Shown here one piece after another: positions 45,379 through 63,116 of a DNA stretch of 64,000 nucleotides. Positions within the stretch are counted from its first letter, which is position 1, and the number at the start of each line of letters is the position of its first letter. The position numbers and the translations under genes are program-made. The stretch is from Polyangia bacterium. Lineage in GTDB: Bacteria; Myxococcota_A; Polyangia; JAAYKL01. The notes under the pieces are model-generated. The model worked only from the letters and a program-made list of their open reading frames with translations. It did not search any database and was not told the DNA's origin. Location: contig JBNKCR010000129.1 of assembly GCA_050287845.1 (NCBI GenBank), forward strand, positions 7,364-71,363. The letters run 5' to 3'.

Positions 45379-46224
45379 TCATGCGGCCTCCTTAATTGAG
45401 ACTTTTGCCGGATTGAGGGACACCGTTTCTACCGGGATCCAGTTTCGTGTTTTTCCAGTCCAACGGTTTGGTTCTTTTTGTTTTGCACTCTCATAAACCA
45501 AATGTCGTTGACGCAAAATTTCTTTATCATCACCATTATGGCGCGCCTCGGGGGTAACGAAGCGGATGCCGCTGTGTAAGTGTTTTGTATTGTACCAAAT
45601 CACAAATTTCTCCATCCAGCGCCTTGCTGAATCGATGGATTCAAACGGCTTGTGAGGGTATTCTGGTCTGTACTTTAATGTTCTGAAGATTGACTCGGAA
45701 TAGGGGTTATTATCGCTTACTCCCGGGCGACTGAAAGATGCCATCACGCCAGGCTGGTCAAGTGTCGCAAGCATTGTGGCGCCTTTCATCGGGCCGCCGT
45801 TGTCTGAATGCAAAGAAAGCTGATTTGCATCTACACCATTGGCGTCAATAATCTGGACAATCATGGCAGATGAAATTTCCATACACTCACGGTCGTGAAT
45901 TTCCCATCCAATAATCTTTCTGCTCCAAACGGCCAGCACAAGATACGGATAATAAAACGTTCCTCTGACCGCTGCAGGCAAGTACGAAATATCCCAACTC
46001 CACACCTGATTGGGGCCCGTTGCCAAAAGTTCATCGGGTCGATTGTGCGTTGCGGGTTTTGAGGATTCTCGATGTTGCTGTTGTCCCTCCTCACGAAGAA
46101 TCCGATACATGGGAGACTCGGATGCCACGTACACGCCGCTATCAGCCAACCTGGGTACAATTTGATAGTTCCCTTGAAGGGTTGACCGATACGCCCAAAG
46201 AAGCGCTGACAATGGGCATCGCAT
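45379..46224 (-). mobile_element. IS3-family transposase remnant (OrfB integrase-core part only; OrfA and the 5-prime part missing)
   Basis: Integrase-core (rve) signature PNQVWSWDISYLP...YYPYLVLAVWSRKIIGWEI and the DDE region; no HTH OrfA frame upstream; transposase-like similarity starts only about 30 codons into the ORF. Confidence 0.7.
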
Positions 46225-46439
46225 CTATTCTTGACGCAAAAGAAATCGCGATGCTGGCCATTGGAAAACACAAATCGAAGATTCTTCAGCGGATAGTTGA
46301 GTCACCCCCTTCAATAATGGTACCGGCATCTTTTCTCTTTTCGCACCCTCAGACAGTTATTTTCGCAGACAGTGCAGCCGGCCAACTTCTCGATCGACAA
46401 CGCGCTGACGTGACCTGGTTTCCATCCCCTCTGAAGTAA
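46130..46439 (+). pseudogene. glucosamine-6-phosphate deaminase (NagB/6-phosphogluconolactonase family) 3-prime fragment
   Basis: C-terminal about 80-100 aa (ALTMGIASILDAKEIAMLAIGKHKSKILQRIVE...SHPQTVIFADSAAGQL) parallels E. coli NagB residues about 185-250; no upstream two-thirds of the gene; abuts the IS3 remnant. Confidence 0.6.
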
Positions 46440-46575
46440 CACGTGAACAATTCTGACCAGTGTCGTATTGATGCCGCATCTAAAACGTTTCAGCGGAAGT
46501 GGTCAAGTAAGAGTCGAATATCCTTTTCGCCCTGATTGTCTGTGAAAGGCACTATAACCGGCTCTGAGAGTTCTG

Positions 46576-47448
46576 CTACATGTGCCTGGCGAACAGTTTG
46601 CTCATGGCATCCCGGGAGATGGGGGGCTGTTTTACGAGTGGTGTGGTCTCGATTTGGGGAATCCGGTCCTGGAAAGCGTTGCCGCTGTCATCGTGGTAAA
46701 AGAGCCCCACCGGAATCTCGTCGCCCCAGGCCATGGCTTTTTCAATGGCCCGGATGCGATCGTTGGTTGGATAATCCGGGTCATCGTTGATATTCACGAT
46801 GCGGTCTTTGTACCACTTGAAGGTGTTCACTTTGTTCATGCTCACACAGGGTTGGAGAATTTCGATGTAACTGAGGCCTCTGTGCTTCACGCCCATCTGA
46901 ATCAATTCGGACAGATGTTTGGTGTCGCCTGAAAAACTGCGCGCCACAAAACGACATCCAAGGGTCAGCGCCAGCGCCGGTCCGCGCAGGGGATACGATA
47001 TCACGCCACGGGGCTGAAGCCTGGTCTGCAGTCCCATGTCACTGGTGGGGGACGCCTGCCCCTGGGTCAATCCATAAATCTGATTGTTGTGAACCATCAG
47101 CGTCACATCAATGTCCCTGCGGAGGGTATGCAGAAAATGTCCGCCACCTTCACCATACATATCCCCATCCCCGGAGTTCAGGAGAATGGTCATATCTTCA
47201 TTGGCCAGCTTGGCGCCGGTGGCGGCAGGCAGTGCACGTCCATGAAGACCACAGTATGCGTTGGCCGTGATGTACTGGGGCAGCTTGGCTGCCTGACCGA
47301 TTCCAGCCATCATCATCACTTCGTGGGGTTCTTTGCCCAGCGCTTCCAGTGCGTCCTTTACGGCGGCAAGAATGCCAAAATCGCCGCAACCGGGGCACCA
47401 TGCGGTTTCTTTTACTGTACAGATATTGAACGATTTGCACTCACTCAT
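46576..47448 (-). CDS. 2-oxoacid:ferredoxin oxidoreductase, beta (TPP-binding) subunit
   Basis: 290 aa; N-terminal Cys cluster (CPGCGDFG); TPP-binding GDG motif (NSGDGDMYGEGGGH); overlaps the alpha gene stop/start. Confidence 0.85.
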   Translation of the reverse strand: MSECKSFNICTVKETAWCPGCGDFGILAAVKDALEALGKEPHEVMMMAGIGQAAKLPQYITANAYCGLHGRALPAATGAKLANEDMTILLNSGDGDMYGEGGGHFLHTLRRDIDVTLMVHNNQIYGLTQGQASPTSDMGLQTRLQPRGVISYPLRGPALALTLGCRFVARSFSGDTKHLSELIQMGVKHRGLSYIEILQPCVSMNKVNTFKWYKDRIVNINDDPDYPTNDRIRAIEKAMAWGDEIPVGLFYHDDSGNAFQDRIPQIETTPLVKQPPISRDAMSKLFARHM

Positions 47449-49148
47449 TTTACCACCTCCAGAACCGCTTCGGTCAGGTCTTCGACAATATAGGGCCGAC
47501 CATCGTATTTCGTCATGATTTCGGGCTTGATGCCGGTGCTCTGAGCGATGATGGCTGCCAGTTGACCCGTACTGTTGCCTTCCACCGAGATGATGCGTTT
47601 GCTTTTTTCAACCGCGCTGCTGAACTGTCTGGTTGGAAATGGCCAGATATCCGTGAGATGCACGTGATTGAGATGCACCCCCCGTTCTTTCAGAATGGCC
47701 ACGGACTCTGACAGGGTATCTCCAGTGGAACCCCAGCTGACCACTGCCACTTCAGCGTCCCTTGTGCCACTGGTCTGCACATTGTACGTGGCACTCAGTC
47801 GCGCGGTTTTCCGTGCGCGCTTTTCAACCATAGCCTTTCTGATTTTCGGATCATCCGTAATGTGGCCGGTCTCCACATGTTCGTGGCTGTCGGTGAGCAT
47901 CAGATGTTTGCTCTGCCCCGGGTACGCTCTGGGAGAAATGCCTGAATCCGTAATGGCATATCGTTTGTACTCAGTCATCTGAGACAGTGTTCTGGTTGAG
48001 ATCATCGACGTTTCTGTGGGAATCCGATCCAGATTGTACTGATCAACCGTGAAGAACGAATCCGCAATATGCTGGTCAGAAAGCACAATCACCGGAATCT
48101 GGTATCGGTCGGCGATATTGAATGCCCTTGCGGTGATGTAAAAAATATCTTCCGCGTTGGTGGCGGCCAGAACCGCCCGGGGGAAATCCCCATGGCCGGT
48201 GAACGTGGAGAAGAGCAGATCGGCTTGCTCCTGACGGGTGGGAAGCCCGGTTCCAGGACCGCCGCGCTGGCAGTTGACAATGACAAGAGGCACCTCTGAA
48301 ATACCGCAGAGGGAAATCGTTTCACTCATAAGCGCCATACCGCCACCGGATGTGGATGTCATGGCGCGAACGCCCGCCATGGACGCGCCCACTGCCTGAT
48401 TCACCGCGGCGATTTCGTCTTCTGCCTGTTCTGTGACGATGCCTGCAGTCACCTCGGCATTGGCCAGGTAGGTGATAATACCGGTGGAAGGCGACATGGG
48501 ATAGCAACTGATGAATTTCATGTTCGCCGAAAGCGCTCCCAGCGCAGCGGCTTCGTTTCCGTTGAGAAACAATCTGGATGGCGCGCCGTCAATGGTTGGA
48601 AGCGAACCCAGTCTGCCCGCATGGGCTTTTCCCCGGGTGTTGCCTTCCGCTGCCGCACCGATGTTACCGGCCGAGATGGTCTCGTCCCTGAAACGCTCCC
48701 TGAAAAGGGTATTGAGAAGTTCAATATCCAGACCAAGGACACCCAAAACGAATCCCACCGCTGCGGAGTTGGAGTAAATGGGCTTCTTTCCAGTCTCCAT
48801 CGCAATCTGTCTGAGTGGGACATCGATAATCCGGGGATCGGCGATGTTCGCCTTCAGTGTAGCATTGTCAACGATCGCAATGCCATCTTTGTGGAGCGCT
48901 TCAATGTCGCTCTCCATTTTTTCCCTGTCGAGGGTGACCAGTAAATCCACCTGCTTTTTCATCGCCCACACGGGGACATCGCTGATGCGCAGTTGAAAAA
49001 AGTTATGTCCGGCGCGAATTCGCGACTCTGAATCCTGCACGCCAAACACGTGGTAACCGGCCCGCACGCAGGCCTTTCCCAGCAGTTTTCCGGTACTCAG
49101 AAGTCCCTGTCCGGCTGCTCCAGCCAATCTGATATTAATGTCGGTCAT
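47445..49148 (-). CDS. 2-oxoacid:ferredoxin oxidoreductase, fused gamma-alpha subunit
   Basis: 567 aa; N-terminal gamma-type domain (LAGAAGQGLLSTGKLL) fused to an alpha-type domain (CYPMSPSTGI, GGPGTGLPT). Confidence 0.85.
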   Translation of the reverse strand: MTDINIRLAGAAGQGLLSTGKLLGKACVRAGYHVFGVQDSESRIRAGHNFFQLRISDVPVWAMKKQVDLLVTLDREKMESDIEALHKDGIAIVDNATLKANIADPRIIDVPLRQIAMETGKKPIYSNSAAVGFVLGVLGLDIELLNTLFRERFRDETISAGNIGAAAEGNTRGKAHAGRLGSLPTIDGAPSRLFLNGNEAAALGALSANMKFISCYPMSPSTGIITYLANAEVTAGIVTEQAEDEIAAVNQAVGASMAGVRAMTSTSGGGMALMSETISLCGISEVPLVIVNCQRGGPGTGLPTRQEQADLLFSTFTGHGDFPRAVLAATNAEDIFYITARAFNIADRYQIPVIVLSDQHIADSFFTVDQYNLDRIPTETSMISTRTLSQMTEYKRYAITDSGISPRAYPGQSKHLMLTDSHEHVETGHITDDPKIRKAMVEKRARKTARLSATYNVQTSGTRDAEVAVVSWGSTGDTLSESVAILKERGVHLNHVHLTDIWPFPTRQFSSAVEKSKRIISVEGNSTGQLAAIIAQSTGIKPEIMTKYDGRPYIVEDLTEAVLEVVK

Positions 49149-49337
49149 GAGGTCTCGGGCTCCATTTTCTGTTGATATACATTGAGAATAGTATCTCGCT
49201 TTCTATATTCGCAATCACCAGAGTTAAACACATCTCAGGCTGAGTGCAACCTCACCGTCGTAACATCCGGCCTTCATCGGACAGATGCTTCGGGAATTAC
49301 ATCAGACATGAAAGTAAACATGATGCTGCGCGGCCAA

Positions 49338-49853
49338 TCAGGCGCCATCGAGACCATGACGCTCTGATGCGTCAAACCAGGCTTCGGGGTCCTGCAGATA
49401 CGCAAGGGAATCTTCGATGGAAAGCTGGTGATCATGTTCGATTTTTTTCAGAAAACCGAAGAATTCCTGTTCTCTGGGGTTCTTGCATTTTTTCACCAGA
49501 TCCGCATAGAAGTCTGCGGCGTCTTTTTCAAACTGAGCTGCCGCTTTCAATGCTTCAATATCACTGTCGTCGTGGGCTTTTGTTTCTTCAGCCTTGTAGT
49601 CGAGTTTTTCGAGCTCTTCTTTTACATTGCTGTCCTGCATTTCCAGGTTCACATCTTCTGGCCATGCGCCATCCGCCAGGAGCGTACTGTGGAGTTTGTT
49701 AATCCACCGTTTGTGGTCTTCCTCTTCCTCCGCCAGCGTTTCAAGCAGACGTTTCACCACGGGATTGGTCGAACGGGCCGCCTCTTTCAGATAGTAATCT
49801 TTTTCGCGTTGCTCATTGTCCATTGCAAATTTTATTGAAGAAATTTTATCCAT
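49338..49853 (-). CDS. ferritin-like / rubrerythrin-like diiron domain protein
   Basis: 171 aa; paired E...E-x-x-H helices (TLAEEEEDHKRW, KKIEHDHQL); no rubredoxin module. Confidence 0.6.
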   Translation of the reverse strand: MDKISSIKFAMDNEQREKDYYLKEAARSTNPVVKRLLETLAEEEEDHKRWINKLHSTLLADGAWPEDVNLEMQDSNVKEELEKLDYKAEETKAHDDSDIEALKAAAQFEKDAADFYADLVKKCKNPREQEFFGFLKKIEHDHQLSIEDSLAYLQDPEAWFDASERHGLDGA

Positions 49854-49896
49854 AACTTTGCTCCTTTACAAAAATCGATGTCCACAAAAGTGAAAA

Positions 49897-50385
49897 CTAG
49901 TTTTCCACCAGCACAACCTCATCGTATTCGACTTCAAATCGCAGTTTGTGCTTTGCTTCTTCCTGGGCCAGCGCAAGAAACAGCGCTTTAATCTCGGGGG
50001 TATCCACTCGACTCGCCAAATCCATGTACAGGCGGAATGCCTGTTTCTCCTGTTGCATGGCAAACAGCAGAATATCCTGGTACGACGGGGATTCACCCAG
50101 CTTCACAGGAACTGTATAATCCGAGAGCTTCATATCGGATGTCGCCGAAGCGCTCTCCAGTACATCTTCGCCTTCCAGAACGTCCTCAAGCTTTTTCCGG
50201 TGTTCCATTTCTTCTTCAGCGTACTCCAGAAAGATTTTTCTGATTTCATTGTTCTTCGCCCTGGCGGCCAGATCGGTATAGAGTACCGCTGAGCGCTGTT
50301 CAAGAGATATGGCATACTCCAGGATGTCCTTTGTGCTCAGGTGTCCGGTCATCGTTATATTCTCACCATTACGTAAGACAGGCAC
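49897..50385 (-). CDS. ferritin-like / rubrerythrin-like diiron domain protein
   Basis: 162 aa; YAEEEMEHRKKL and LAQEEAKHKLRF motifs; start may be the internal MTGHLSTKDI (50352). Confidence 0.6.
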   Translation of the reverse strand: MPVLRNGENITMTGHLSTKDILEYAISLEQRSAVLYTDLAARAKNNEIRKIFLEYAEEEMEHRKKLEDVLEGEDVLESASATSDMKLSDYTVPVKLGESPSYQDILLFAMQQEKQAFRLYMDLASRVDTPEIKALFLALAQEEAKHKLRFEVEYDEVVLVEN

Positions 50386-50441
50386 GGGTGTTGCGCAAAA
50401 CGCTTACGGATTCGGGCAACACTTTCGCGCCTGCGGATTCA

Positions 50442-50984
50442 TCAGAAATATCGTTTCAACAGTCCGGCAAATGCCTGACCGTGCCTTGCTTCGTCTTTGC
50501 ACATTTCATGTACGGTATCGTGAATGGCATCGTAATTCAGCTGTTTGGCTTTGGTTGCGATGTCCTTTTTCCCCTGGCAGGCGCCGTGCTCCGCAGCGAC
50601 GCGCATTTCCAGGTTTTTCTTTGTGTCTGCCACAAGCACTTCACCCAGAAGCTCAGCAAACTTGGCCGCATGTTCCGCTTCTTCGAATGCAATGCGTTTG
50701 TATGCTTCGGCAACTTCCGGATACCCTTCGCGTTCCGCCTGTCGGCTCATGGCGAGGTACATGCCCACCTCCGTGCATTCGCCCATGAAATTCTGACGCA
50801 ATCCTTCCAGTATTTCGGCGTCAACATCTTTGGCCACGCCAATGCGATGCTCATCCGCCCAGGTCATTCCGGTACCGGACTGCTCCTGAAATTTTTCTTT
50901 GGGGGCGCCGCATTGGGGGCATTTGTCCGGCGCACTGTCGCCTTCGTATACGTAACCACAAATGGTGCAAATGTATTTTTTCAT
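50442..50984 (-). CDS. reverse rubrerythrin (N-terminal rubredoxin-like, C-terminal ferritin-like)
   Basis: Start at [15 protein letters not shown] (ORF opens at 51005); CxxC...CxxC at the N-terminus (CTICGY...CPQCGAP), then a diiron four-helix region ([20 protein letters not shown]). Confidence 0.8.
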
Positions 50985-51065
50985 TTGATACTCCTCTTTT
51001 TTCAATCGGTTAATTGTTGTTGATGTGATTGCATCATTAATGTCTCCGCGCGTATTGTCAATCGC

Positions 51066-51311
51066 TCATGTGTGCCACTTGCCTGCAATCCGATGCTTCT
51101 CACACTCTTTTTCTGTGAGTTTGATCAGTCTGTAGGCGGTATCGCGCAAAATACTGTAAATCACGCCACAGGAATCATCATCCCTGTCCCGGTCGCCCTC
51201 ATCCGCCAATGCCAGCATTTCCTGGCTGAGTCGCATGGTTCTGAGCAGATTGTCGTTGTACGGTTTGTACGGTTTTGTCATCTCGCCATCCATTCTGCGA
51301 TGTATCACCAT
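51066..51311 (-). CDS. hypothetical small protein
   Basis: 81-aa ORF directly upstream, same strand, of the reverse rubrerythrin gene; no motif recognised. Confidence 0.35.
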   Translation of the reverse strand: MVIHRRMDGEMTKPYKPYNDNLLRTMRLSQEMLALADEGDRDRDDDSCGVIYSILRDTAYRLIKLTEKECEKHRIAGKWHT

Positions 51312-51635
51312 TTTTCCGCCGGCATCGCGATGGCAGGCTATTTAGCGAATGCCATGCCAGTTTAAAAAAACGTTTAATATCAACCTGTTGATTGAATTGT
51401 TGTTCAAAAATGTCTCATTGGCAGTGTCTCGGCGCGTTGCTTCCGGGGCTGTGAGACAAACGGCCGACGAGACAGATACTGCGGCGACAAATCGGTGTTG
51501 GTGCGGTCAAATCCTGCCTGAAAGAGATTGTGTCGAGGTTCGCAGTAGCGGCGGGAACTTCCATGATTACAGTGGTGAAACAGCAGATCACAATCATATA
51601 TAACCGTGCAGTTTGCACAGTGATACAGGAGAACA

Positions 51636-51902
51636 ATGATGAGCAGCCCCAAAACCTATGAATACAGGGCCAATCTTTCCCGGGAACAGATTCTGGAATA
51701 TCTCGAGAATGTTGCAGCCGGTATCCGGTCCGGTAAAGTGATATTACAAAACGGACAGGGGGAGCTGGCGCTGGAAACAACCCCCACCACCAGGCTCGAA
51801 GTGTCTGTGAAGCAGAGCGCTAAATCCACCGGTCTGAAACTCAAGTTCAAGTGGCGAAATGATACCGATTCCCGGGATGAGTCCAGTACCGCGGAGAACT
51901 GA
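51636..51902 (+). CDS. hypothetical small protein (amphi-Trp-domain-like)
   Basis: 88-aa ORF with GGAGAA RBS; pattern ELALETTPTTRLEVSVKQSAKSTGLKLKFKW resembles the amphi-Trp small-protein family. Confidence 0.45.
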   Translation: MMSSPKTYEYRANLSREQILEYLENVAAGIRSGKVILQNGQGELALETTPTTRLEVSVKQSAKSTGLKLKFKWRNDTDSRDESSTAEN

Positions 51903-52200
51903 GCGCCGCCGGGATGAGTTCTCTCCCCGGAATGCCGGGATGCGATTCCCATGGTTTTACTGATGGTGAATATTTACCGGATTTTTGAAAACGGATGTTT
52001 TATCACCGAAATATGCCGAAAAAGTGGAAACCCGGTCTTCAGCACTGTCCGGAAATGCCGATTTTCAGGGTGTCTCTCAATTGCGCATGTATCGCTTATG
52101 CGAGCAAACCAGTTGGCAGAAACATTGAACAGAACTGAAGCATTGAACAGAATTGAAACATTGAAATCATCACCATACGAACCCGGGATAATGAGAGATC

Positions 52201-53019
52201 ATGACCTTTTTGGAACCGTATTCGAGCCCGCGTGTACTTGCCACGGCCGGTCTCCCCAATGAGCAGGATCGCTTTTCAGACGCAGGGATAATTTCGAAAG
52301 CGCCCGTGGAGGTGACCCACGAACTGGCTTCGCTGCTGGCGCACCTGCATGAGCGCGTATCTCCCAACTATCGTCCGCGCGAAATCATTCTGGAGCTGTT
52401 GGCCGAGCTCGAAAGAAAATCGGCATTCACCGCCCAGCATTCGATGAAGGTGGCCACCGTTGCCCGCATTCTCGCCAAATCACTGCATCTCGATATTGTG
52501 GCCCTGGAGCGAATCAGCCTTGCTGCGTTACTCCACGACGTGGGCAAACTGGTGATTCCCATCCGCATCCTGAACAAAAAGAAAGCGTTGTCGGATGCAG
52601 AACGCCGTTGCATCCAGACCCATGCCGTATTCACCGATGTCATCCTCTCCGCATTTCCCATCTTCGATGCCATTCGGGGGATTGCCACACTGCATCACGA
52701 ACACCTCAATGGCACCGGGTATCCGTTCGGGTATGGCGGCAGCGACCTTTCCATGGAAACGCGGATTATCACCGTGTCCGACATCTTTGTTGCATTGACC
52801 GAAGATAGACCCTATCGCCCCGGCGTGACCCAATCCGCCGCACTCCACAAGCTGCAGATGCTGGCCAGTGAGGATATTGTGGACCGCAGGCTGGTGGAAA
52901 GTGCCAGGCAACATCTGCTTCCCCACAACCACTCTTCCGCCATCTGGTTTCCATCCCGGACCGCCATCTCCATCGCCCTCGATTTCGAGTCCCTGCAGAC
53001 TGCCGGAATGATTTCGTAA
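52201..53019 (+). CDS. HD-GYP domain phosphohydrolase (putative c-di-GMP phosphodiesterase)
   Basis: 272 aa; HD motif LLHDVGKL and GYP motif HLNGTGYPFG. Confidence 0.8.
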   Translation: MTFLEPYSSPRVLATAGLPNEQDRFSDAGIISKAPVEVTHELASLLAHLHERVSPNYRPREIILELLAELERKSAFTAQHSMKVATVARILAKSLHLDIVALERISLAALLHDVGKLVIPIRILNKKKALSDAERRCIQTHAVFTDVILSAFPIFDAIRGIATLHHEHLNGTGYPFGYGGSDLSMETRIITVSDIFVALTEDRPYRPGVTQSAALHKLQMLASEDIVDRRLVESARQHLLPHNHSSAIWFPSRTAISIALDFESLQTAGMIS

Positions 53020-53114
53020 TCACCTTTCTTTCAGGGACATAAGAAATATGCGACGTGCGGGTCCTGTGCTATAACAATCTCTGGTTTACAAAGCGTGACA
53101 ACAAGGGAGGTCCT

Positions 53115-53999
53115 ATGAATCGATTGGGTATCAGTCTCTGTATCTGCATCTTTGCCATCGGTTGCGGTGGCGGTAATCCAGCCATATCGGATTCGGCAGT
53201 TTCACCTGCCCGGGAAAATTCTGATGGAAACGTTTCCACGGCACCGGGAGGCGTTGATGAGTTCGGCACCAGAACCGGTGATGCATCCGGGGGCGGGGTC
53301 AGTGGTTCGAAGTTGACCCCCACGGAAACCGAAGCCGTGCTGAAACTGATTGTGCAGTCCGAAGGCGTTGGGCCAATGGCGAAGGTGGTGGTGAGAGCGG
53401 TGACTTTGGACGGAAAGAAATTTTACACGCCGGAAACGGATTCCATGGGATACACGGAAATTCTGGTGCCCAGGGGAGCGCAGTTGACGCTCACGTATCT
53501 GTCTCTGTTCACCGATGATATTCAGAAGCAGACCGTCATTCCCGACAAACCCCATGTGACCATGAAACTGACACTCACCTGGATTCCCCCCAAACCCCGG
53601 CCCATTGAAACGCCGGATCCCGGGGTGCTGATTGCGCAATCCCCATCTGCTGAACCATCTCTCATCCTGGATGGCGTGGTGTTCGATACCGGCAAATCCA
53701 CGCTTCGTCCGGAATCCTACGAGCACATTGAATCGGTGCTGGAATACCTCACATATAAACCCAGTGCGATTATTGAGCTGTCCGGTCACACGGACAACGT
53801 GGGCAATCCGAAGAAGAATCTGAATCTTTCCGAAGATCGGGCAAACGCGGTGCGGGACTATCTGATTTCAAAGGGGATAGATGGCAGTCGCATCATTGCA
53901 GTGGGATATGGCGAGCAACGGCCGATTGCGTCCAACAATACCGAAGAAGGACGCCAATTGAATCGACGTACCGAAGCCAAAGATATCGCAAAACTATAG
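53115..53999 (+). CDS. OmpA-family lipoprotein (peptidoglycan-binding OmpA/MotB C-terminal domain)
   Basis: Start at MNRLGISLCICIFAIGC with AGGGAGG RBS (ORF opens at 53055); lipobox AIGC; C-terminal domain with NLSEDRANAVRDYL...GYGEQRPI. Confidence 0.8.
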   Translation: MNRLGISLCICIFAIGCGGGNPAISDSAVSPARENSDGNVSTAPGGVDEFGTRTGDASGGGVSGSKLTPTETEAVLKLIVQSEGVGPMAKVVVRAVTLDGKKFYTPETDSMGYTEILVPRGAQLTLTYLSLFTDDIQKQTVIPDKPHVTMKLTLTWIPPKPRPIETPDPGVLIAQSPSAEPSLILDGVVFDTGKSTLRPESYEHIESVLEYLTYKPSAIIELSGHTDNVGNPKKNLNLSEDRANAVRDYLISKGIDGSRIIAVGYGEQRPIASNNTEEGRQLNRRTEAKDIAKL

Positions 54000-54222
54000 C
54001 GCCACGGGCAGGACGGTGCGACGCTTCCCCGGTGCGCCGGGATGTGAAGCCCACCGCATCGCCGGTCTGTCGCCTAAACAACGAGACGGCCTTTCGTAAT
54101 ATTATTAATTTAGCAATTATTTGTTTTCGGTAAGTACAGAAAATACGTGTAGTTTTTGGTTCGCGCAGTGGTATAAACCTTTGGAACGGATAAAAAATGA
54201 TTTTCGCAACCCCGGACCAGAT

Positions 54223-55851
54223 ATGACATTGATCCGTTTTTTATTGAGTGCGTCCCTGAAAATGACGCTGCTCACCATATTCGTGGCACTGCTCAGCGGC
54301 GCATTCAGCGGCGCCGTTGTGGCTGTGGTGCATCGGACGATTGAATCAGACCGTGAACTGACGCTGCTGCTGGGTATCGCATTTGTTCTGGCGGCGACCG
54401 GTAAACTGATTACCGGATATTTCAGTGAAGTCATGCTCACCAGAAGAGCGCAGACCGCCGTCGCCGCGTTGCGTCTGGACCTGGTTCGCAAACTGCAGCG
54501 GGTGCCGTTCAAGCGCTTTGAGGAGTTGGGACAGGCGAGGATTCTCACCACCTTCACCGACGATGTGGCGTCAGTAAGCCAGGGGCTGTACCAGCTGCCG
54601 GCATTCACCATCAACGTTGCGGTGTCTCTGGGCGGGGCGCTGTACCTGGTATATCTGTCGTGGCAGACACTGTTTCTCCTCGGCGGGCTGTCGCTCATTG
54701 GCGCCCTGGTGTATCGCTTCATGCTGAGACGTGCATGGCGGGTGTATGGCCTGGCGCGCGATGAGCGGGATCGACTGAACAATCACCTCGTTACATTGAC
54801 CCGGGGTATGAAGGAACTCAAACTGCACCGACCGCGACGTCATGCCTATACCGAAGTTGAGCTCCAACACAGCACCGACAGGCTCATGGAACTGGATGTC
54901 AAATCCCACTCGCGGTATATTCTGGCCCACAGCACCACCCATTTTTTTCTGATGGTCCTCATCGGACTGATTGTATTTGTCTCGCCCCAGCTCCTGCATA
55001 TTTCCGAAACCACGGTGACCGGATATGTGTTGATTGCACTTTTTCTGATGGGACCCCTGAGCGGGATTGCCGGCACCATGCCGGTATTCAGCCGGGCCGG
55101 GGTGGCTGTGGATCGCATCCGCAAACTGGGGATTTCATTCGATTCCGGCAAGCAGGAAAAAGCGGTGGTCACTGCAGAGGACGCCGCGTCGTTTATGGAA
55201 ATATCGCTGAATGAGGCCACATGTGTCTATGAAAGGGAAGGGGACGCCCCCTTTACCCTTGGACCGGTGAACCTGAAATTCGGTCCGGGCGAATTGATTT
55301 TTATTACCGGCGGAAATGGAAGTGGCAAGTCTACCCTCGCGAAGTTACTCACCGGTCTGTATGCACCCGGGGACGGTCAGATTCTGTGGAATGGCACACC
55401 GGTGACTGACGAAAATCGGGATGATTACCGGCAGCTGTATACCACGGTGTTTTCAGATTTCTTTTTATTTGAATCGCTGCTGGGACTGGATTCCCCCAAT
55501 CTGGACACCCGGGCGCAGAGCCATTTGAAAAATCTGGGACTCGATAAAAAAGTGCGCATTGAACATGGCGCATTGTCAACGGTGAATCTTTCAACCGGAC
55601 AACGAAAGCGGCTGGCATTGCTGACCGCATATCTTGAAAATCGACCAATCTATGTGTTTGACGAGTGGGCAGCGGACCAGGACCCGTCGTTCAGAAAAGT
55701 GTTTTATGAAGAACTGATTCACGATTTGAAAGCAGAGGGCAAAACAATCCTCGTGATTACGCATGATGACAGATATTTTCACCTGGCGGACCGACATTTT
55801 GAAATGAGGGACGGGCAGATGGCAGAACGGGACAGACAAAAAAAGGAATAG
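54223..55851 (+). CDS. cyclic-peptide/siderophore-type ABC exporter (fused permease-ATPase)
   Basis: Start at MTLIRFLL (ORF opens at 54121); N-terminal six-helix permease; C-terminal ATPase with Walker A GGNGSGKST, signature LSTGQRKRLALL, Walker B IYVFDEW. Confidence 0.8.
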   Translation: MTLIRFLLSASLKMTLLTIFVALLSGAFSGAVVAVVHRTIESDRELTLLLGIAFVLAATGKLITGYFSEVMLTRRAQTAVAALRLDLVRKLQRVPFKRFEELGQARILTTFTDDVASVSQGLYQLPAFTINVAVSLGGALYLVYLSWQTLFLLGGLSLIGALVYRFMLRRAWRVYGLARDERDRLNNHLVTLTRGMKELKLHRPRRHAYTEVELQHSTDRLMELDVKSHSRYILAHSTTHFFLMVLIGLIVFVSPQLLHISETTVTGYVLIALFLMGPLSGIAGTMPVFSRAGVAVDRIRKLGISFDSGKQEKAVVTAEDAASFMEISLNEATCVYEREGDAPFTLGPVNLKFGPGELIFITGGNGSGKSTLAKLLTGLYAPGDGQILWNGTPVTDENRDDYRQLYTTVFSDFFLFESLLGLDSPNLDTRAQSHLKNLGLDKKVRIEHGALSTVNLSTGQRKRLALLTAYLENRPIYVFDEWAADQDPSFRKVFYEELIHDLKAEGKTILVITHDDRYFHLADRHFEMRDGQMAERDRQKKE

Positions 55852-55859
55852 TATTTTTT

Positions 55860-58800
55860 ATGTTGGCATATGGAATAGATACCATCAACGAAGCTTTAAA
55901 ACGAAATGCAGAGCAGTATGGCGACGACATTGCGTTCCGATTCATCCAGGGCGGTACAGATGAAAAGAGTATCACCTACGCCGAACTGTATTCGAGAGCG
56001 CTGCAGATAGCTTCGCAGTTTCGATTGGCAGAAATCCCGTTACAGTCGAAGGTATTGATTCTGTATCCGTCCTCCCTTGAATACATCTGCACGCTGTTCG
56101 GTTGTTTTCTGGCGGGGACAACCGCGATACCGGCGTATCCACCGGTGTTCAACCGGTCACTCTCCGCCCTGCGGAATATCGTTCTCGATTCCGGAGCAAC
56201 CATCGCCTGTGTGGAATCGGCGATTCGGGAGCAGTTGCAACCGTTGCTTCACACGGAGTCCTGGCTCGAAAATCTGAACTGGATGACCCCGGAAGAAGAT
56301 GTTGACGACGCCGTCGATACGAGCGCCCTGCCAGATGTGGCGCCGGAAGACCTGGCCGTTCTGCAATACACGTCCGGTTCCACCAGTGCCCCCAAAGGCG
56401 TGATGTTGTCCCATCGAAATCTGGTGGCCAATGCCCATATGCTCATGGCGCGTGTGCAGGCGACCGCCCGGGTAGACAGAATGGTCGCCTGGCTGCCCCC
56501 GTTTCACGATATGGGTCTCATCGGGAGTATTCTGGCGCCGGTATGCGCCCGGGTGGAATCCACCCTGATGCCCCCCAGTTCGTTTATCAAAAAGCCCCTT
56601 CGCTGGCTGGAAGCGATTTCCAGATATCGGGGAACCATCACTGCGGCGCCGGATTTCGCGTACGAGATGTGTGTGCATCGCACCCCTCCGAAGCAGCGGG
56701 AACTGGTGGATCTCTCCAGCCTGCGCGTGGCCCTGAACGGGGCGGAGAAGGTTCGCGAAGACACGCTGAACCTGTTCTGTGATGCGTTTAAATCGCAGGG
56801 ATTCTCAATGTCGGCATTTGCGCCGTCCTACGGGTTGGCGGAAGCGACACTGGGGGTTGCCATCAAACGGAATGGCAATACGCCGCTTGCCCGCCGATTT
56901 GATACGGAGAAACTGAAGGAAGGGTTGGCGGTCCCGGTCGGCGGCGATGACGGCACATCCCTGGTCACCTGCGGCAAGCCCCTCGATGGCGTGGATGTGA
57001 AAATTGTTTCCATTGAAACGCGGCAAGTCGTTACACCCGGGATGATTGGCGAAATTTGGGTGCGCAGCGCCAGCGTGTCCAGGGGATACTGGCAGAAAAT
57101 CGAGTTGAGTCGTGAGATTTTTGAAGGAACGCTGCCTTCGGATGGCAGACCGGATGAGAAGTATCTGGCCACCGGTGATTTGGGATTCCTGTATGACAAT
57201 GAATTGTATGTGACCGGCCGCCACAAGGATCTGATCATTGTGCTGGGGGTCAATCATTATCCGGAAGACATCGAGAAAACAGTTGAATCCGCCCATCCCG
57301 CCATCCGGCAACATACTGTCATTGCGTTTGCGCTGCCGATAAACGGGACCGAGCGCGTGGTGGTGACCACTGAGATTGCCCGGGGCAATGAATTCGCCCT
57401 CGACGACATCATTGGTGCCATCCGCAATGCCATCAGCACCCGACATCAGTTGCCGGTGTACGATATTGTGCTGCTTCCCCAGGGAGGACAGGTGGCCAGG
57501 ACCACCAGCGGGAAGCCACGGCGCAGCGCGTCCCGGCAGAAGTACGAAGCCAACGGGTTTACGCCGCTGGGAAGCAGTCAGATGCAGCAGGGGACAGAAT
57601 CGGGTTCTCCGGCGGAAGAAATTGCAGTGGTCCAGCGGGTCATGGCGGAAGTGCTTTCGGTGGACCGGGTTTCAGCAGACGACGACTTCTTTGCCCTGGG
57701 CGGACATTCGCTCATCGCCACCCAGCTGGCCTCCCGGTTGGCATCTCTCTGGGAAAGAGAGGTGCCCGTGCGGGTGATATTCGAGCGGCCGACGGCTGCC
57801 CGGCTGGCGGGGGTGCGGCACTCGCTGCCGGTGACCGGAAAACGGAATCAGATACAGAAGGTGGACCGAAGCGGTCCGCTGGTGCTTTCCCACTCTCAGG
57901 AGCGAATGTGGCTGTTGCACCAGCTGGAACCGGATGGCACGGCATACAATGTTTCCGGTGCGGTAGTGGTGGATGGTCCGTTCAACGTGGTCCATTGCCA
58001 GACGGCGATGCAGCGCCTGGTTGACCGCCATGAAACCCTGCGAACCACTTTCCCTTCCGAAGGCGGTACGGTTTCTCCCATGATTCACTCCAATGTGAAA
58101 ATCAACGTTGTTTGTGAAGACCTGTCGAGCGCCGATGACCCGCTGGAACAGGCCGCACGCAAGGGGTCGCTGCTGGCCCACAGGCCGTTTGATCTGGCGA
58201 GGGATTTGCTGATACGGGTTGCCATATTCAAAGTTGCCGACGTTCGGCATGCCATTGTCATTTCGATGCATCATGTCATCTCCGATGCATGGTCTCTGGG
58301 CGTGGTGCTCAAAGAAATCATGGAAGACTACCTGGCATTGAACCGGGGCGAAGTTCCGACTTCGGTGGTGCCGGACATTCAGTATGTGGATTACGCGGCC
58401 TGGTTCCGGCCCGTCGTGGAAAGTGAACGGTTCAATGATGAACTGTCGTATTGGCGGAACCGACTGCAGGGCACACCGAATCTTGAACTGCCCACCGATC
58501 GGTCCCCGGGTTCGAATGTGAGTTCAGCAGGGGAAATGGAACGACTGCAAATTTCGGAAACCCTGCGCAATGAAATTGAGGATTTGGCCCATCAACATGG
58601 CGCCACGCCATTCATGGTGATGCTGCTGGCCTTTGAAACCCTGTTGTACCGGTACAGCCGGCAAACGGATTTTGCCATCGGGGTGCCCATTGCCAACCGC
58701 AATCATCATCAGTCCGAACATCTGGTTGGCACCCTGGTCAATACCCTGGCTTTCCGCGCGAATCTGAATCCAAAGGAGGCATTCAGTGCGCAACTGGAAC

Positions 58801-61775
58801 GCATCCGGGAAGACTGCCTCGATGCGTATGCCCATCAGCAGTTGCCGTTTGAGCGGCTGGTGCAGGAACTGCATCTCGAACGGCGAGCGGGACAGACGCC
58901 CCTGGTGCAGGTGATGTTTGACTACGCCAATCCGCCCATGCCAAAGGCCCGGACCGACGAATTTTCGCTATCGCCCCTGTTCATTTCGAGACGGGCTGCC
59001 CAGTTTGATTTGAGTCTGCTCACCCTGGATTCCGAAATCGGATTCGTGACAGCGATGGAATATAGGAGCGATTTATTCGATGCGTCCACCGTGCGGCGCA
59101 TGCTGGACCATTACCTGCGTATTCTGAAATTGGCGGTCACCAATCCCACTCAGCGTCTTTGTGACATGGCGTTTCTTTCTCAGGATGAAATCCGGGAAAT
59201 CGTTGCTCTCGGCGCCAGCACAAATATGAAACCGGTTTCATCGGATACCACGGTCGCGCGCATTGTGGCTGGTGCCGATGGGGTGACAGGTAAAATGGCG
59301 GTGACAGATGAAGTCGATGGGATCACGTACGGCAGGTTGATGGAACTGACTCGTACGGCTGCCGCAAAGATGGCTGCGGCCAACGTGGCAGCGGGAAGCC
59401 GGGTGGCAGTATGTCTGGAACGGTCACGGCTGATGCCGGCGGCACTGCTGGCGGTGCACTGGCTGGATGCGGCGTACGTACCCATCGACCCGCATTTCCC
59501 GGCTGAACGGGTGAGATACATGCTGTCGGAGACCACGCCCGCGGTGGTGGTCTGCGATGAGGCCACCACCGCCGCGTATCCGGAGTTGGCGCAATACCCG
59601 TGTCTGCGGATTGAAGACGTGGTACAGAGCGAGCCCCTCACGCCACCACCTCTGACCACCCGACCCGATTCCACGGCGTATATTATTTTTACTTCCGGCT
59701 CCACGGGAAAACCAAAAGGAGTGGAGATTCCCCAGCGCGCCATGCTGAACTTTCTGGAGTCCATGGCCCATACACCGGGAATGACTGCCACCGATCGCCT
59801 GCTGTCCGTCACCACCATATCGTTTGACATTTCAGTGCTCGAAATCTTTTTACCGCTGCTCTGTCAGGCCGAAGTGAAGATTGTCGGCAGCGATACGGCA
59901 TTGAACGCCCAGAAACTGCGGGGAATACTGGAAGAGACTGATGTCACCGTGATGCAGGCCACGCCGGTCACCTGGCGGATGCTCATTGAATCCGGATGGG
60001 CAGGCAGCGATTTGTTGACGGTACTCTGCGGCGGTGAAGCAATGCCCGCTGATCTGGCGGAACAGTTGGTTACTCGCAGTAAAGCCCTGTGGAATATGTA
60101 TGGGCCTACGGAAACCACCGTGTGGTCCACGGTTCAGCAAATCAGAACAAAGGAAGCCATTGATATTGGCCGGTCCATTGATCGGACCGCAGTGTATATT
60201 CTGGATGCCACAAAACAGCTTTGTCCCATTGGTGTCACTGGCGAAATCTATATCGGCGGCGCCGGCGTGGCCAAAGGATATTTCAAGCGTCCGGAACTCA
60301 CGCAGGAGCGATTTGTCAAAGACCCCTTTACCCCCGGATTCGGCGATCGCATGTATGGTACCGGCGATCTTGGACGCATGCGATCGGATGGCACATTCGA
60401 ATGTTTCGGTCGTCTGGATCATCAGGTGAAAATTCGTGGATACCGCATTGAGCTGGGTGAAATTGAAGTTGCGCTGAAACAATTGCCCGAAGTGGCGGAT
60501 GCGGTGGTCATTCCCTGGGAGGTAACCCCCGGGGATGCGCGTCTTTCCGCCTATATTATCGCAGAAGGGACGGCGCCAGAGAGCGAGCAACTGCGAAATG
60601 TACTTCGAAAATCGCTGCCGGGATACATGGTGCCCAGCTGGTTCACGGTGATGGCCCAGTTCCCCACCACGCCCAACGGTAAAATTGACCGCAAGGCACT
60701 GCCTGGCCCCGATGCGAAACTGGAAGTGCAGAGCCCGCTGAGAGTCGCCCCGCGGAGTGAGACAGAGAAAGCGCTGGCCGTCCTGTGGGCCCGGACCCTG
60801 GATGTGACCCATCCGAGTATTACCGACAACTTCTTCGATGTGGGACACTCGCTGCTGGCTGCCCGGTTGTTCGGGCAAATCGAAAAAGAGATGGGGGTTT
60901 CGCTCCCCCTGTCGGTGCTGTTTTCGCATCCCACCATTGAGATGCTGTCCGCATACATCGACGGACAGGTCGATGAACTGGGGTATTACGAACTGAAATA
61001 TGTGGTGCCCATCAAACCCCGGGGGCGCGCCACGCCGGTGTTCTGTATCCACGGCGCCGGGGGGAACGTGCTCAATTTTGAGTCCCTCGCAAGGCATATC
61101 GACGCGGATTGTCCACTGTATGCCATCCAGGCCCGTGGGGTGCATGGCACGGAAACGCCCTTTGACACCATTGAAAAGACGGCGTCGGCCTATCTGGAAG
61201 AAGTCATGGAGATTCAACCGACCGGTCCATACATTATCATGGGATACTGCGCCGGTGGGGTTGTGGCATTTGAAATGGCCAGGCAGATTCAGTTGAAAGG
61301 TGACATGGTGCGGGATTTGATTCTGATAGATACGTTCCGTCCCGGGGTTGGCTATACCATTCCCTCATTCGGCAAACGGGTGCTTCGCGCGGCGACCAAA
61401 GGTCCGGGGCATTTCTTCCGACACAGTTTCTCCAGGCTGCATCGAATTAAAGAGGACAACGCCAATCTGAAGGCGCTGAACAGGCACCTGAGCGCCGGCG
61501 AGCCGGTGCCCCACGAACTGAGGACCCTTTGGCTGACCCGGGCGTTTCTGGACTCCGTTGAAAAGTACCAGCTGCCGGTGTACGATGGGGCACTCACCAT
61601 CTTTGAAGCGGCGGATGTTCCTTCGGATCTGGTGTGCAGTGAGCCCAATCTGGGATGGGATGGATACGCTGCGTCCATCAGTTGCACCAAAGTGCCGGGA
61701 GGCCACCTCACCCTCACCGACGAACCCAACGCAAAAGTCCTGGCCACCGAACTCTGCAACCGCCTCCACCGCTGA
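55860..61775 (+). CDS. non-ribosomal peptide synthetase, FAAL - carrier - C - A - carrier - TE (single amino-acid module with lipid-loading domain)
   Basis: 1971 aa. FAAL-like domain aa 1-565 (TSGSTSAPKGV). Carrier GGHSL (Ser617). C domain HHVISDAWS (aa 804-812). A domain core motifs FTSGSTGKPKGV, FDIS, NMYGPTE, GEIYIGGAGVAKGY, YGTGDL, GRLDHQVKIRGYRIELGEIE, LPGYMVP, PNGKIDRKAL. Second carrier FFDVGHSL (Ser1664). TE with IHGAGGN and GYCAG. Confidence 0.9.
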   Translation: MLAYGIDTINEALKRNAEQYGDDIAFRFIQGGTDEKSITYAELYSRALQIASQFRLAEIPLQSKVLILYPSSLEYICTLFGCFLAGTTAIPAYPPVFNRSLSALRNIVLDSGATIACVESAIREQLQPLLHTESWLENLNWMTPEEDVDDAVDTSALPDVAPEDLAVLQYTSGSTSAPKGVMLSHRNLVANAHMLMARVQATARVDRMVAWLPPFHDMGLIGSILAPVCARVESTLMPPSSFIKKPLRWLEAISRYRGTITAAPDFAYEMCVHRTPPKQRELVDLSSLRVALNGAEKVREDTLNLFCDAFKSQGFSMSAFAPSYGLAEATLGVAIKRNGNTPLARRFDTEKLKEGLAVPVGGDDGTSLVTCGKPLDGVDVKIVSIETRQVVTPGMIGEIWVRSASVSRGYWQKIELSREIFEGTLPSDGRPDEKYLATGDLGFLYDNELYVTGRHKDLIIVLGVNHYPEDIEKTVESAHPAIRQHTVIAFALPINGTERVVVTTEIARGNEFALDDIIGAIRNAISTRHQLPVYDIVLLPQGGQVARTTSGKPRRSASRQKYEANGFTPLGSSQMQQGTESGSPAEEIAVVQRVMAEVLSVDRVSADDDFFALGGHSLIATQLASRLASLWEREVPVRVIFERPTAARLAGVRHSLPVTGKRNQIQKVDRSGPLVLSHSQERMWLLHQLEPDGTAYNVSGAVVVDGPFNVVHCQTAMQRLVDRHETLRTTFPSEGGTVSPMIHSNVKINVVCEDLSSADDPLEQAARKGSLLAHRPFDLARDLLIRVAIFKVADVRHAIVISMHHVISDAWSLGVVLKEIMEDYLALNRGEVPTSVVPDIQYVDYAAWFRPVVESERFNDELSYWRNRLQGTPNLELPTDRSPGSNVSSAGEMERLQISETLRNEIEDLAHQHGATPFMVMLLAFETLLYRYSRQTDFAIGVPIANRNHHQSEHLVGTLVNTLAFRANLNPKEAFSAQLERIREDCLDAYAHQQLPFERLVQELHLERRAGQTPLVQVMFDYANPPMPKARTDEFSLSPLFISRRAAQFDLSLLTLDSEIGFVTAMEYRSDLFDASTVRRMLDHYLRILKLAVTNPTQRLCDMAFLSQDEIREIVALGASTNMKPVSSDTTVARIVAGADGVTGKMAVTDEVDGITYGRLMELTRTAAAKMAAANVAAGSRVAVCLERSRLMPAALLAVHWLDAAYVPIDPHFPAERVRYMLSETTPAVVVCDEATTAAYPELAQYPCLRIEDVVQSEPLTPPPLTTRPDSTAYIIFTSGSTGKPKGVEIPQRAMLNFLESMAHTPGMTATDRLLSVTTISFDISVLEIFLPLLCQAEVKIVGSDTALNAQKLRGILEETDVTVMQATPVTWRMLIESGWAGSDLLTVLCGGEAMPADLAEQLVTRSKALWNMYGPTETTVWSTVQQIRTKEAIDIGRSIDRTAVYILDATKQLCPIGVTGEIYIGGAGVAKGYFKRPELTQERFVKDPFTPGFGDRMYGTGDLGRMRSDGTFECFGRLDHQVKIRGYRIELGEIEVALKQLPEVADAVVIPWEVTPGDARLSAYIIAEGTAPESEQLRNVLRKSLPGYMVPSWFTVMAQFPTTPNGKIDRKALPGPDAKLEVQSPLRVAPRSETEKALAVLWARTLDVTHPSITDNFFDVGHSLLAARLFGQIEKEMGVSLPLSVLFSHPTIEMLSAYIDGQVDELGYYELKYVVPIKPRGRATPVFCIHGAGGNVLNFESLARHIDADCPLYAIQARGVHGTETPFDTIEKTASAYLEEVMEIQPTGPYIIMGYCAGGVVAFEMARQIQLKGDMVRDLILIDTFRPGVGYTIPSFGKRVLRAATKGPGHFFRHSFSRLHRIKEDNANLKALNRHLSAGEPVPHELRTLWLTRAFLDSVEKYQLPVYDGALTIFEAADVPSDLVCSEPNLGWDGYAASISCTKVPGGHLTLTDEPNAKVLATELCNRLHR

Positions 61776-61799
61776 ATCACTGAATTCGAACAGGAAGAC

Positions 61800-61860
61800 A
61801 TCGGATACGCCTGGTTGGCGTATCCCCGGGATCGCTGGGCTCCAGTCCTGTTTTCTGCAG
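61800..61860 (+). terminator. candidate intrinsic terminator after the NRPS gene
   Basis: Perfect 9-bp stem GGATACGCC/GGCGTATCC with 5-nt loop about 28 nt after the stop, and a short T run (tgttttctg) about 25 nt further on; the T tract is not adjacent, so weak. Confidence 0.3.
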
Positions 61861-62094
61861 TGCACATTGATGTGTAGAGGAGGGGAAGACGATAATGACG
61901 GTCATTGCTTTCTGATATCGGCGCCGTTTTGCACTGCTGCTTCGGATAGATCATGATAAATTTTTAAACATGTTTCTGAAATTGGTGGCGATGAAGATGC
62001 CTCCAGAACACTCCGCCATTGTTTCAGCAATTTCTCCATCTCAGGACAGTGATCATTATAAAATTGCCACCTTGCTTCCGCTGCATCCCGCCCG

Positions 62095-62365
62095 ACTTCG
62101 TTGCTCGTCGGTCGCATACCCCGGTATGTTCCGCTCCTCGCGCCTTGCCGGTCCGGCGCAGCAAATGCCATGTTGGAAATTTTATTTCGACCACTGTCCT
62201 TAGGTCTTGCTCATAAATAACTCTGCCATTCATGCAACAAACTTGACATCCCTGCTGCGTTGCTCCTCCTCGCCATACCGCCAGTATGACTCGTTGTCGC
62301 GCCTTGCCGGATATGTCATCCTGTTACCTGAATCAACAGATTTATTTATGAGCAAACCCTTAGAC
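62095..62365. repeat. intergenic composite repeat: about 55-bp imperfect direct repeat plus about 20-bp inverted repeat (ttgctcataaataa core)
   Basis: Copy A about 62099-62155 and copy B about 62258-62312 share cgttgctc...cgcgccttgccgg; inverted copies of (c)ttgctcataaataa at about 62204-62220 and 62341-62361. Confidence 0.4.
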
Positions 62366-62444
62366 AAAATTAAATCTGAAGTTTAATTTTGTCTGATTTT
62401 GTTTTGGGGAACAGGAGATCTCCCCTGCTGGATGCATAAACCAT

Positions 62445-63116
62445 TCAATTCAGAATATGGGGCAAAACGAGGCGCAGGTCTTTGTGTGGGATTTCCACGT
62501 CGCAGAGGTTGGCGAGGGTTTGGGATTTGCAGTTGAAGGCAATGGAGAGGCCGGCGGATTTGGCAATCCAGATGTCGTTTTCGTTGTCGCCCACAAATAC
62601 GGCCTGTTCTGTGGCGATGCCCGCCTTTTCGCACAGATGACGCAACCCGTCGGCTTTGGCTTCCACGTCAAACGGGGTGTGAATGCCCCCGTCAATATCG
62701 CCGGATGCATTGAAATGGATGCGGTTGATGAGCACGTCGTCGAAGGCGAAATGGGGAAACAGCACATCGAGCACCGTCTGAATGGAACCGGACACCACGG
62801 CCACCGCCAGTCCCGCAGCCTTCAGGGTCTTAAGGGTTTCCATGGCGCCGCACATGGGTTTCAGTGTGCGACACATCTGAATGATACCGTTGCGGTTGGC
62901 CCCGGCTGCCCGAAGCAGTTTTAAATCGTGGCGAAACCATTCTTCGTAGGTGATGGCGCCGGAAAAATAGTCGTCGTAGGCCTGCTGTCGTTCTTTGGGG
63001 TCGGTATGGAACCCTTCGTGCAGGGTTTTCCAGATGTACACCGTATCGTCAACCAGGGTGCCGTCCAGATCGAAACATACAAGGGAATAGGGGAGCGGGA
63101 ATTCAGATGTGTTCAC
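62445..63116 (-). CDS. HAD-superfamily hydrolase (phosphatase-like)
   Basis: 223 aa; motif I LVCFDLDGTLVDD near the N-terminus; motif IV region VFVGDNENDIWIAKSAG. Confidence 0.75.
   Translation of the reverse strand: MNTSEFPLPYSLVCFDLDGTLVDDTVYIWKTLHEGFHTDPKERQQAYDDYFSGAITYEEWFRHDLKLLRAAGANRNGIIQMCRTLKPMCGAMETLKTLKAAGLAVAVVSGSIQTVLDVLFPHFAFDDVLINRIHFNASGDIDGGIHTPFDVEAKADGLRHLCEKAGIATEQAVFVGDNENDIWIAKSAGLSIAFNCKSQTLANLCDVEIPHKDLRLVLPHILN

Follow-up and report, generated by a model that had tools for sequence, protein, structure and literature searches.

Three structurally known nonribosomal peptide synthetase (NRPS) thioesterases (TEs) that use a nucleophilic cysteine are named in the literature: ObiF, SulM and AB3403 (PMC11298585, PMC6668435). 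ObiF, of the obafluorin pathway, makes a beta-lactone and SulM, of the sulfazecin pathway, makes a beta-lactam (PMC11298585, PMC6668435); each forms a four-membered ring and requires a terminal residue with a beta-hydroxy or beta-amino group (PMC11298585, PMC6668435), and both enzymes cluster with type II TEs and carry the aspartate of the catalytic triad after strand beta7 (‘position II’) (PMC11298585). Here we describe a synthetase gene (positions 55860..61775, forward strand) in a 64,000-nucleotide stretch of contig JBNKCR010000129.1 from a Polyangia bacterium (the whole of this stretch is referred to below as the window). The C-terminal TE of its product has a cysteine in place of the usual catalytic serine, and is a further member of the kind represented by AB3403, which is known and structurally documented yet poorly understood.

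AB3403 of Acinetobacter baumannii (ABBFA_003403, PDB 4ZXH/4ZXI) is the ortholog of A1S_0115 and belongs to the operon A1S_0112-0118/0119 (PMC5376624, PMC10510592). That operon encodes an adenylating enzyme (A1S_0112), an acyl-CoA dehydrogenase (A1S_0113), an ACP (acyl carrier protein; A1S_0114) and a module with condensation (C), adenylation (A), carrier (T) and TE domains (PMC5376624). The TE of AB3403 has a nucleophilic cysteine and an aspartate after strand beta6 (‘position I’), and has been called uncharacterised (PMC11298585). The operon is required for surface motility and pellicle formation (PMC5376624, PMC4457973), is thought to produce a surface-active lipopeptide (PMC4457973) and has been linked to Ac-505, a compound of 505 Da in which non-standard linkages connect a hydroxylated C15 chain, a glycine and a Cys-Gly unit (PMC5376624). 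A literature search for a characterized enzyme with the domain order FAAL-T-C-A(Gly)-T-TE (where FAAL denotes a fatty-acid--AMP ligase domain), or for a survey of cysteine TEs, turned up only ObiF, SulM and AB3403.

A cysteine nucleophile in an otherwise canonical thioesterase

The original prediction had described a TE domain with a cysteine at the nucleophile position. Translation of positions 61017..61775 yields exactly the residues it quoted, including PVFCIHGAGGNVLNF ... IIMGYCAGGVVAFEMA, and this segment forms the C-terminus of the 1971-residue open reading frame (ORF) at 55860..61775. The Thioesterase family PF00975 matches with 98.7 bits (cutoff 26.4) at 61035..61772 (+), beginning at residue 1726, directly after the preceding PP-binding carrier domain (residues 1638–1700). 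A TGC codon at 61248..61250 (+) specifies the cysteine, residue 1797, within a GYCAGG elbow, as had been proposed. When the domain was aligned by phmmer to all PDB chains, the catalytic serine or cysteine of five solved TEs fell on Cys1797, among them the serines of Skyxy-TE (7crn, GWSLG), Pks13-TE (GWSLGG) and EntF (GYSLGG) and the catalytic cysteine of A. baumannii AB3403 (4zxh, GGWCFGG), in agreement with the claim that cysteine here replaces the catalytic serine.

The remainder of the triad is assigned by the same alignments and by a structural model. The acid is Asp1824 (GAT, 61329..61331, +; motif LILIDTF), which aligns with the aspartate of the IDT/LDT motifs of AB3403, EntF and Pks13, and the base is His1949 (CAC, 61704..61706, +; motif PGGHLT), which aligns with the histidine of the Pks13 GEH motif. 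An AlphaFold model of the TE domain, built on 61 sequences (predicted local distance difference test score, pLDDT, 94.5; predicted template modelling score, pTM, 0.91), sets Cys1797 in a classical nucleophile elbow between a strand (model residues 86–91) and a helix (93–107), with the aspartate directly after strand 112–118 (beta6, position I) and the histidine after strand 232–240, the last of the fold, both at the places expected for a triad. Foldseek ranked Pks13-TE first among the matches to this model, with Skyxy-TE and AB3403 also at the top. Both the position I aspartate and the triad histidine are present in 19 of 19 members of the clade of TEs to which the domain belongs (see below).

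The domain thus has the features of a type I TE of NRPSs and polyketide synthases (PKSs): the family profile, a location C-terminal to a carrier domain, an alpha/beta-hydrolase elbow, an acid after beta6 and a histidine after the last strand. As predicted from alignment and model, it is a canonical Cys-His-Asp form of the usual Ser-His-Asp TE.

Authenticity of the cysteine codon

A TGC codon is a single substitution away from TCC, and all 22 serine nucleophile codons found in related loci are of the form TCN, so that a misread or misassembled serine codon could in principle have produced the cysteine. A Logan assembly of sequencing run SRR36185847 contains a 16,213-base contig that is 100% identical to positions 45860..62072 of the window, the codon included, and the identical 1971-residue protein is also called on that contig (L081). 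An ENA ortholog from an independent source (P0115; 1974 residues, 91% identity, same 90% cluster) keeps GYCAGG together with the aspartate and the histidine. GYCGGG or GYCAGG stands at the elbow in the nearest relatives, and the top three word-index matches read GYCGG. Agreement between the second assembly, the ortholog at 91% identity and the elbows of the relatives makes a Ser-to-Cys miscall very unlikely; as 18 of 19 clade members and 21 TE domains in the genomic loci that we fetched likewise have cysteine, we assign next to no probability to an artefact.

Domain architecture and predicted glycine specificity

Pfam and NCBIfam models place six domains in the protein in the order FAAL-T1-C-A-T2-TE, indicating a single-module synthetase for a lipo-amino acid. 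Pfam reports two stretches each of AMP-binding and PP-binding, an AMP-dom_DIP2-like domain (residues 457–563) and an AMP-binding_C domain (1534–1608). The FAAL-like loading domain (residues 8–570; 55881..57569, +) is covered by AMP-binding and AMP-dom_DIP2-like, and matches the NCBIfam fatty-acid--AMP ligase models PRK05850, PRK09192, FadD21 and FadD32 with E-values of 1e-110 to 1e-138, at scores below the cutoffs, which were set for stand-alone proteins. An additional NCBIfam model, PRK05691, which we take to be PvdL-like, covers residues 8–1491.

The loading domain is followed by an ACP-like carrier domain, T1 (57621..57824, +), identified by Pfam PP-binding and by its motif FFALGGHSL, in which the codon of Ser617 lies at 57708..57710, and then by a condensation domain (residues 675–1114; 57882..59201, +; PF00668, 336 bits) with the active-site motif HHVISD at 58269..58286. 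The adenylation domain (residues 1144–1608; 59289..60683, +) precedes the second carrier domain, T2, of the peptidyl carrier type (60771..60959, +), the putative attachment residue of which is Ser1664 (codon 60849..60851). The T2 motif, FFDVGHSLL (60831..60857), has one glycine fewer than the LGGHSLL or LGGDSLL of the relatives that were checked. This one-glycine deletion is real, because the 91% ortholog P0115 carries the same deletion in its T2.

The ten-position specificity code of the adenylation domain reads DILQLGMVWK; the positions were assigned by hand against the GrsA numbering, and the code was then extracted by script. The canonical glycine code is DILQLGLIWK, with which the extracted code agrees at eight of ten positions. 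The code is identical in P0144, P0187 and P0115, which are the closest full-length relatives, and nearly identical in L001. Among solved structures, the C-A-T portion of the protein is best matched by module 2 of LgrA (816 bits, with AB3403 at 596 bits), which activates glycine. The structure of AB3403 was likewise solved with glycine bound (PMC10510592). The adenylation domain is therefore predicted to load glycine, and the chain expected on the second carrier is N-acyl-glycyl-S-T2.

Distribution of cysteine and serine among related thioesterases

No close ortholog of the synthetase was found among 185,579 GTDB species genomes. The best match (L001, 42% identity), from a metagenome-assembled genome (MAG) of the Steroidobacteraceae, has the six domains in the same order and a GYCAGG elbow. 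Full-length proteins with a cysteine TE from the same clade (L001, P0144 and P0187) are all of FAAL-T-C-A(Gly)-T-TE architecture with a glycine code; L001 and the window's own source, a deltaproteobacterium-like MAG, are accompanied by two sources (P0144 and P0187) that are unannotated.

We fetched 80 genomic loci (L001–L080), in which TE matches comprise 30 with cysteine and 24 with serine. An exhaustive HMMER search of 1.84 billion representative sequences, from which the best 150 clusters were aligned, gave 211 TE domains, 43 with cysteine, 160 with serine and eight with aspartate, glycine or alanine at the nucleophile position. In a rough neighbour-joining tree of 283 TE domains (64 Cys and 214 Ser, with AB3403 left out) the nucleophile residue changes at least 19 times. 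The TE of the window falls in a clade of 19, of which 18 have cysteine and one has serine, and this clade lies within a group of 84 whose other members are GYSGGG serine TEs; two proteins sampled from that surrounding group (P0181 and P0197) are polyketide synthases of KS-AT-KR-DH-ACP-TE architecture. Nucleophile codons in the fetched loci are uniformly TCN for serine (22 of 22, with no AGY) and TGY, either TGC or TGT, for cysteine (21 of 21), so that at the second codon position one C/G change separates the two residues.

Judged from this distribution, the cysteine is old and conserved within this small family and recurs across the wider TE neighbourhood. The original statement that TEs with cysteine for serine are uncommon holds for the literature, where they are described as less common (PMC11298585, PMC6668435), but not for the relatives of this domain, where they make up 64 of the 283 domains and nearly all of its own clade. 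A strict link between a glycine terminus and a cysteine TE was considered and rejected: TE-terminated ORFs of the fetched loci that have a glycine code in their last adenylation domain divide into 18 with cysteine and 17 with serine (18/35 Cys), in a sample that was picked by similarity to the glycine module of the window and so provides no baseline. Two proteins (L003 and L004) are otherwise identical in architecture, FAAL-T-C-A(Gly)-T-TE, and have a serine nucleophile.

Two further features of the related TEs were apparent in these comparisons. In the 283-domain alignment, the position I aspartate is kept in 212 of 213 serine TEs and in all 19 domains of the clade of the window's TE, but in only 25 of the 46 other cysteine TEs; in the remaining 21 it is replaced by Asn (13), Glu (3), Gly (2), His (2) or Gln (1). 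In these other lineages (for example L021, L023, L029, L069, L080, P0128 and P0130–P0132) the triad acid is lost or replaced where the nucleophile is cysteine, in a manner reminiscent of Cys-His-Asn hydrolases. Many of the top TE relatives (P0125, P0128–P0132, P0139, P0141 and P0164) have two TE domains per protein, and several of them have a mid-chain cysteine TE directly after the first adenylation domain and a second cysteine TE at the end. Such proteins look like two termination modules joined head to tail.

Proposed reaction course and alternative modes of release

The domain order suggests a short reaction course. The FAAL-like domain would adenylate a fatty acid and load it onto T1, the adenylation domain would charge T2 with glycine, and the condensation domain would couple the two to give N-acyl-glycyl-S-T2. 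Cys1797 of the TE would then accept the chain from the pantetheine of T2 by thiol-to-thiol exchange (transthioesterification), forming a thioester acyl-enzyme, and the His1949/Asp1824 pair would activate an incoming nucleophile, most likely water, to release free N-acyl-glycine. An ABC exporter encoded directly upstream would probably export the product. This overall picture, a one-module lipo-glycine synthetase with a cysteine TE and with hydrolysis as the default release, is in our judgement probable; we infer from sequence the fatty-acid substrate, the actual product, its hydrolytic release and co-transcription with the exporter. The original view that product and release would be hard to predict stands in part: the scaffold (N-acyl-glycine) can be predicted from the glycine code, whereas the release step may be either hydrolysis or transfer.

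Several observations weigh against so simple a scheme. The GHS motif of T2 is unusual, and modification of T2 by a phosphopantetheinyl transferase (PPTase) is putative; neither a PPTase nor an acyl-CoA dehydrogenase was found among the window ORFs that were scanned. The full-length PDB matches that extend over the lid go to Pks13-TE, which is also the top Foldseek match and is an acyl-transferase that moves mycolate to trehalose. The conservation of the cysteine, in a clade whose sister group has serine throughout, suggests a chemical or selective reason for it beyond simple hydrolysis, and thioester acyl-enzymes as a matter of general chemistry favour aminolysis and thiolysis. Ac-505, with its glycine and Cys-Gly unit in non-standard linkages (PMC5376624), is not a simple N-acyl-glycine, and by analogy plain hydrolytic release may be too simple. 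Taken with the naming of the exporter family for cyclic peptides, these points argue for a non-hydrolytic release, in which an external amine, thiol or alcohol would resolve the Cys1797 thioester, or in which a hydroxyl of the fatty chain would do so to give a cyclic or dimeric depsipeptide. We regard such a release as unlikely: no acceptor-supplying gene lies nearby and related loci offer only exporters or a PPTase, serine TEs on the same architecture with the same glycine code (L003 and L004) imply that the cysteine is not required for the assembly line, and Pks13-TE itself uses serine. A broader form of the idea is a speculative one, and slightly more doubtful still: fused proteins of the type FAAL-T-C-A(Gly)-T-TE(Cys) may be a family widespread in uncultivated bacteria, in which the cysteine hands the chain to an amine, a thiol or a lipid hydroxyl in place of water. 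If so, they would make a new class of lipo-glycine conjugates, and the same chemistry would also account for the odd linkages of Ac-505.

The original prediction had also connected cysteine TEs with strained lactone formation. The window TE has in common with ObiF and SulM a GxCxG elbow in a C-terminal NRPS TE and a thioester acyl-enzyme intermediate (PMC6668435, PMC11298585), and ObiF1 gives a marginal sequence match (E 1.7e-3). Yet the connection does not apply here, because a terminal glycine, as read from the code, has neither a beta-hydroxy nor a beta-amino group, such as a beta-hydroxy amino acid or 2,3-diaminopropionate would offer, with which to close a four-membered ring. In addition, Asp1824 stands at position I and is invariant in the clade, as opposed to position II, with a non-acidic residue at position I, in the ObiF/SulM type; the residue after beta7 is also acidic but variable in the clade (Asp in 12, Glu in five and other residues in two, n = 19), and an acidic residue there is common in serine TEs too. 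The elbow reads Tyr-Cys-Ala where that of SulM reads Gln-Cys-Asn, and no sulfotransferase, beta-hydroxylase or aldolase genes were found near the synthetase. On the glycine code, the position of the aspartate, the elbow motif and the ranking of fold matches we rejected ObiF/SulM-like chemistry, with a beta-lactone or beta-lactam formed on release, as highly improbable, and we retain hydrolysis to N-acyl-glycine as the preferred reading.

Genomic neighbourhood

The exporter gene (54121..55851, +) encodes fused membrane and ATPase domains (Pfam ABC_membrane and ABC_tran) and passes the NCBIfam model TIGR01194, ‘cyclic peptide export ABC transporter’, with 474 bits (cutoff 286). Its stop codon lies 9 nucleotides upstream of the first codon of the synthetase; in the Logan gene call the exporter begins at 54223. 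Other neighbours show no biosynthetic role: genes for OmpA-like and HD-domain proteins lie upstream, and a convergent gene for a HAD phosphatase and a gene for an alpha/beta hydrolase lie downstream. A six-frame search of the window gave no motif match for an MbtH-like partner. A scan of 51800..62600 for promoters and terminators found sites no more frequently than in shuffled sequence, and the operon is not delimited thereby. Next to the genes of relatives stand exporters or a PPTase, with no other biosynthetic genes; a MOP-type flippase and RND pumps surround L001, and a fragment (P0002) is followed only by an Sfp-type PPTase.

The GC content of the synthetase gene in sliding windows (0.56–0.59) is somewhat raised over that of its surroundings (about 0.52). 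Recent horizontal transfer is nevertheless unsupported, as the GC content at third codon positions (0.655) lies within the range of the neighbouring genes (0.58–0.69).

Several features elsewhere in the window were also noted. Upstream of the synthetase, at a distance of about 9.6 kb, is an ORF with rve-type integrase core domains, of the transposase kind (45379..46224, −). Between about 46576 and 50400 (−), the L081 gene calls comprise two subunit genes of a 2-oxoacid:ferredoxin oxidoreductase followed by three rubrerythrin-domain genes, which together suggest an anaerobic or microaerophilic host. The citrate synthase of this host is 80–83% identical to proteins of MAGs that bear the name ‘Deltaproteobacteria bacterium’. 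A 315-residue ORF (42860..43807, +) encodes a dockerin domain of type I, an unusual feature for bacteria that do not form cellulosomes. Four long ORFs, at 14337..17177 (−, 946 residues), 44003..45298 (−, 431 residues), 21595..22977 (−, 460 residues) and 10166..11380 (+, 404 residues), have no Pfam family at E ≤ 1e-5 and are regarded as putative genes.

Comparison with known systems

Cysteine TEs are usually taken as a sign of exotic release chemistry, as in beta-lactones and monobactams. The domains described here point to a second and apparently larger group of cysteine TEs, with a canonical triad layout and in glycine-terminated lipopeptide modules, for which the beta-lactone rule of thumb fails. 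For genome mining this means that a GxCxG motif should not by itself be equated with a strained ring, and that one must also check where the aspartate lies and which amino acid comes last. AB3403, which has been solved but is functionally unexplained, and the operon of which affects motility, pellicle formation and virulence, belongs to this group.

At its N-terminus the synthetase resembles PvdL (FAAL-T-C-A...) and the lipoinitiation of daptomycin (FAAL, ACP and C), in which, as would be the case here, a fatty acid is activated, held on a carrier and N-acylated onto the first amino acid. Those assembly lines run through many modules, whereas the synthetase of the window ends after a single glycine with a cysteine TE. 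For the TE itself, Pks13-TE of Mycobacterium tuberculosis gives the best full-length alignments, lid included (E about 2e-18), with the aspartate and the histidine aligned; it differs in its serine nucleophile, its PKS context and its mycolate substrate.

The closest counterpart as a whole is AB3403, which aligns with residues 16–1168 of a C-A-T-TE query. Both have a C-A-T-TE termination module with a glycine adenylation domain, and both have a cysteine nucleophile (GGWCFGG aligned on GYCAGG) with the triad aspartate at position I, which puts the two TEs in one geometry class. AB3403 is also fed by an AMP-ligase and an ACP (PMC10510592, PMC5376624), functions that in the window protein are fused to the N-terminus. 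The two systems differ in that the FAAL and ACP of the Acinetobacter system are separate proteins, whereas here both are joined to the module in one protein of 1971 residues, and in that the AB3403 operon has an acyl-CoA dehydrogenase and further members, as compared with an ABC exporter alone adjacent to the synthetase of the window. AB3403 gives the best match among solved proteins, but the TEs are only about 24% identical over the whole domain, and phmmer aligns the N-terminal half only, the lid half being too divergent. Their hosts are likewise distant (an Acinetobacter and an uncultivated deltaproteobacterium-like MAG), and Ac-505 is itself a tentatively assigned product. On balance, and by analogy, the synthetase looks most like a fused form of an AB3403-type FAAL + ACP + C-A(Gly)-T-TE(Cys) system without its accessory genes, a two-gene relative (exporter and fused synthetase) that could serve as a simple model for the role of the cysteine.

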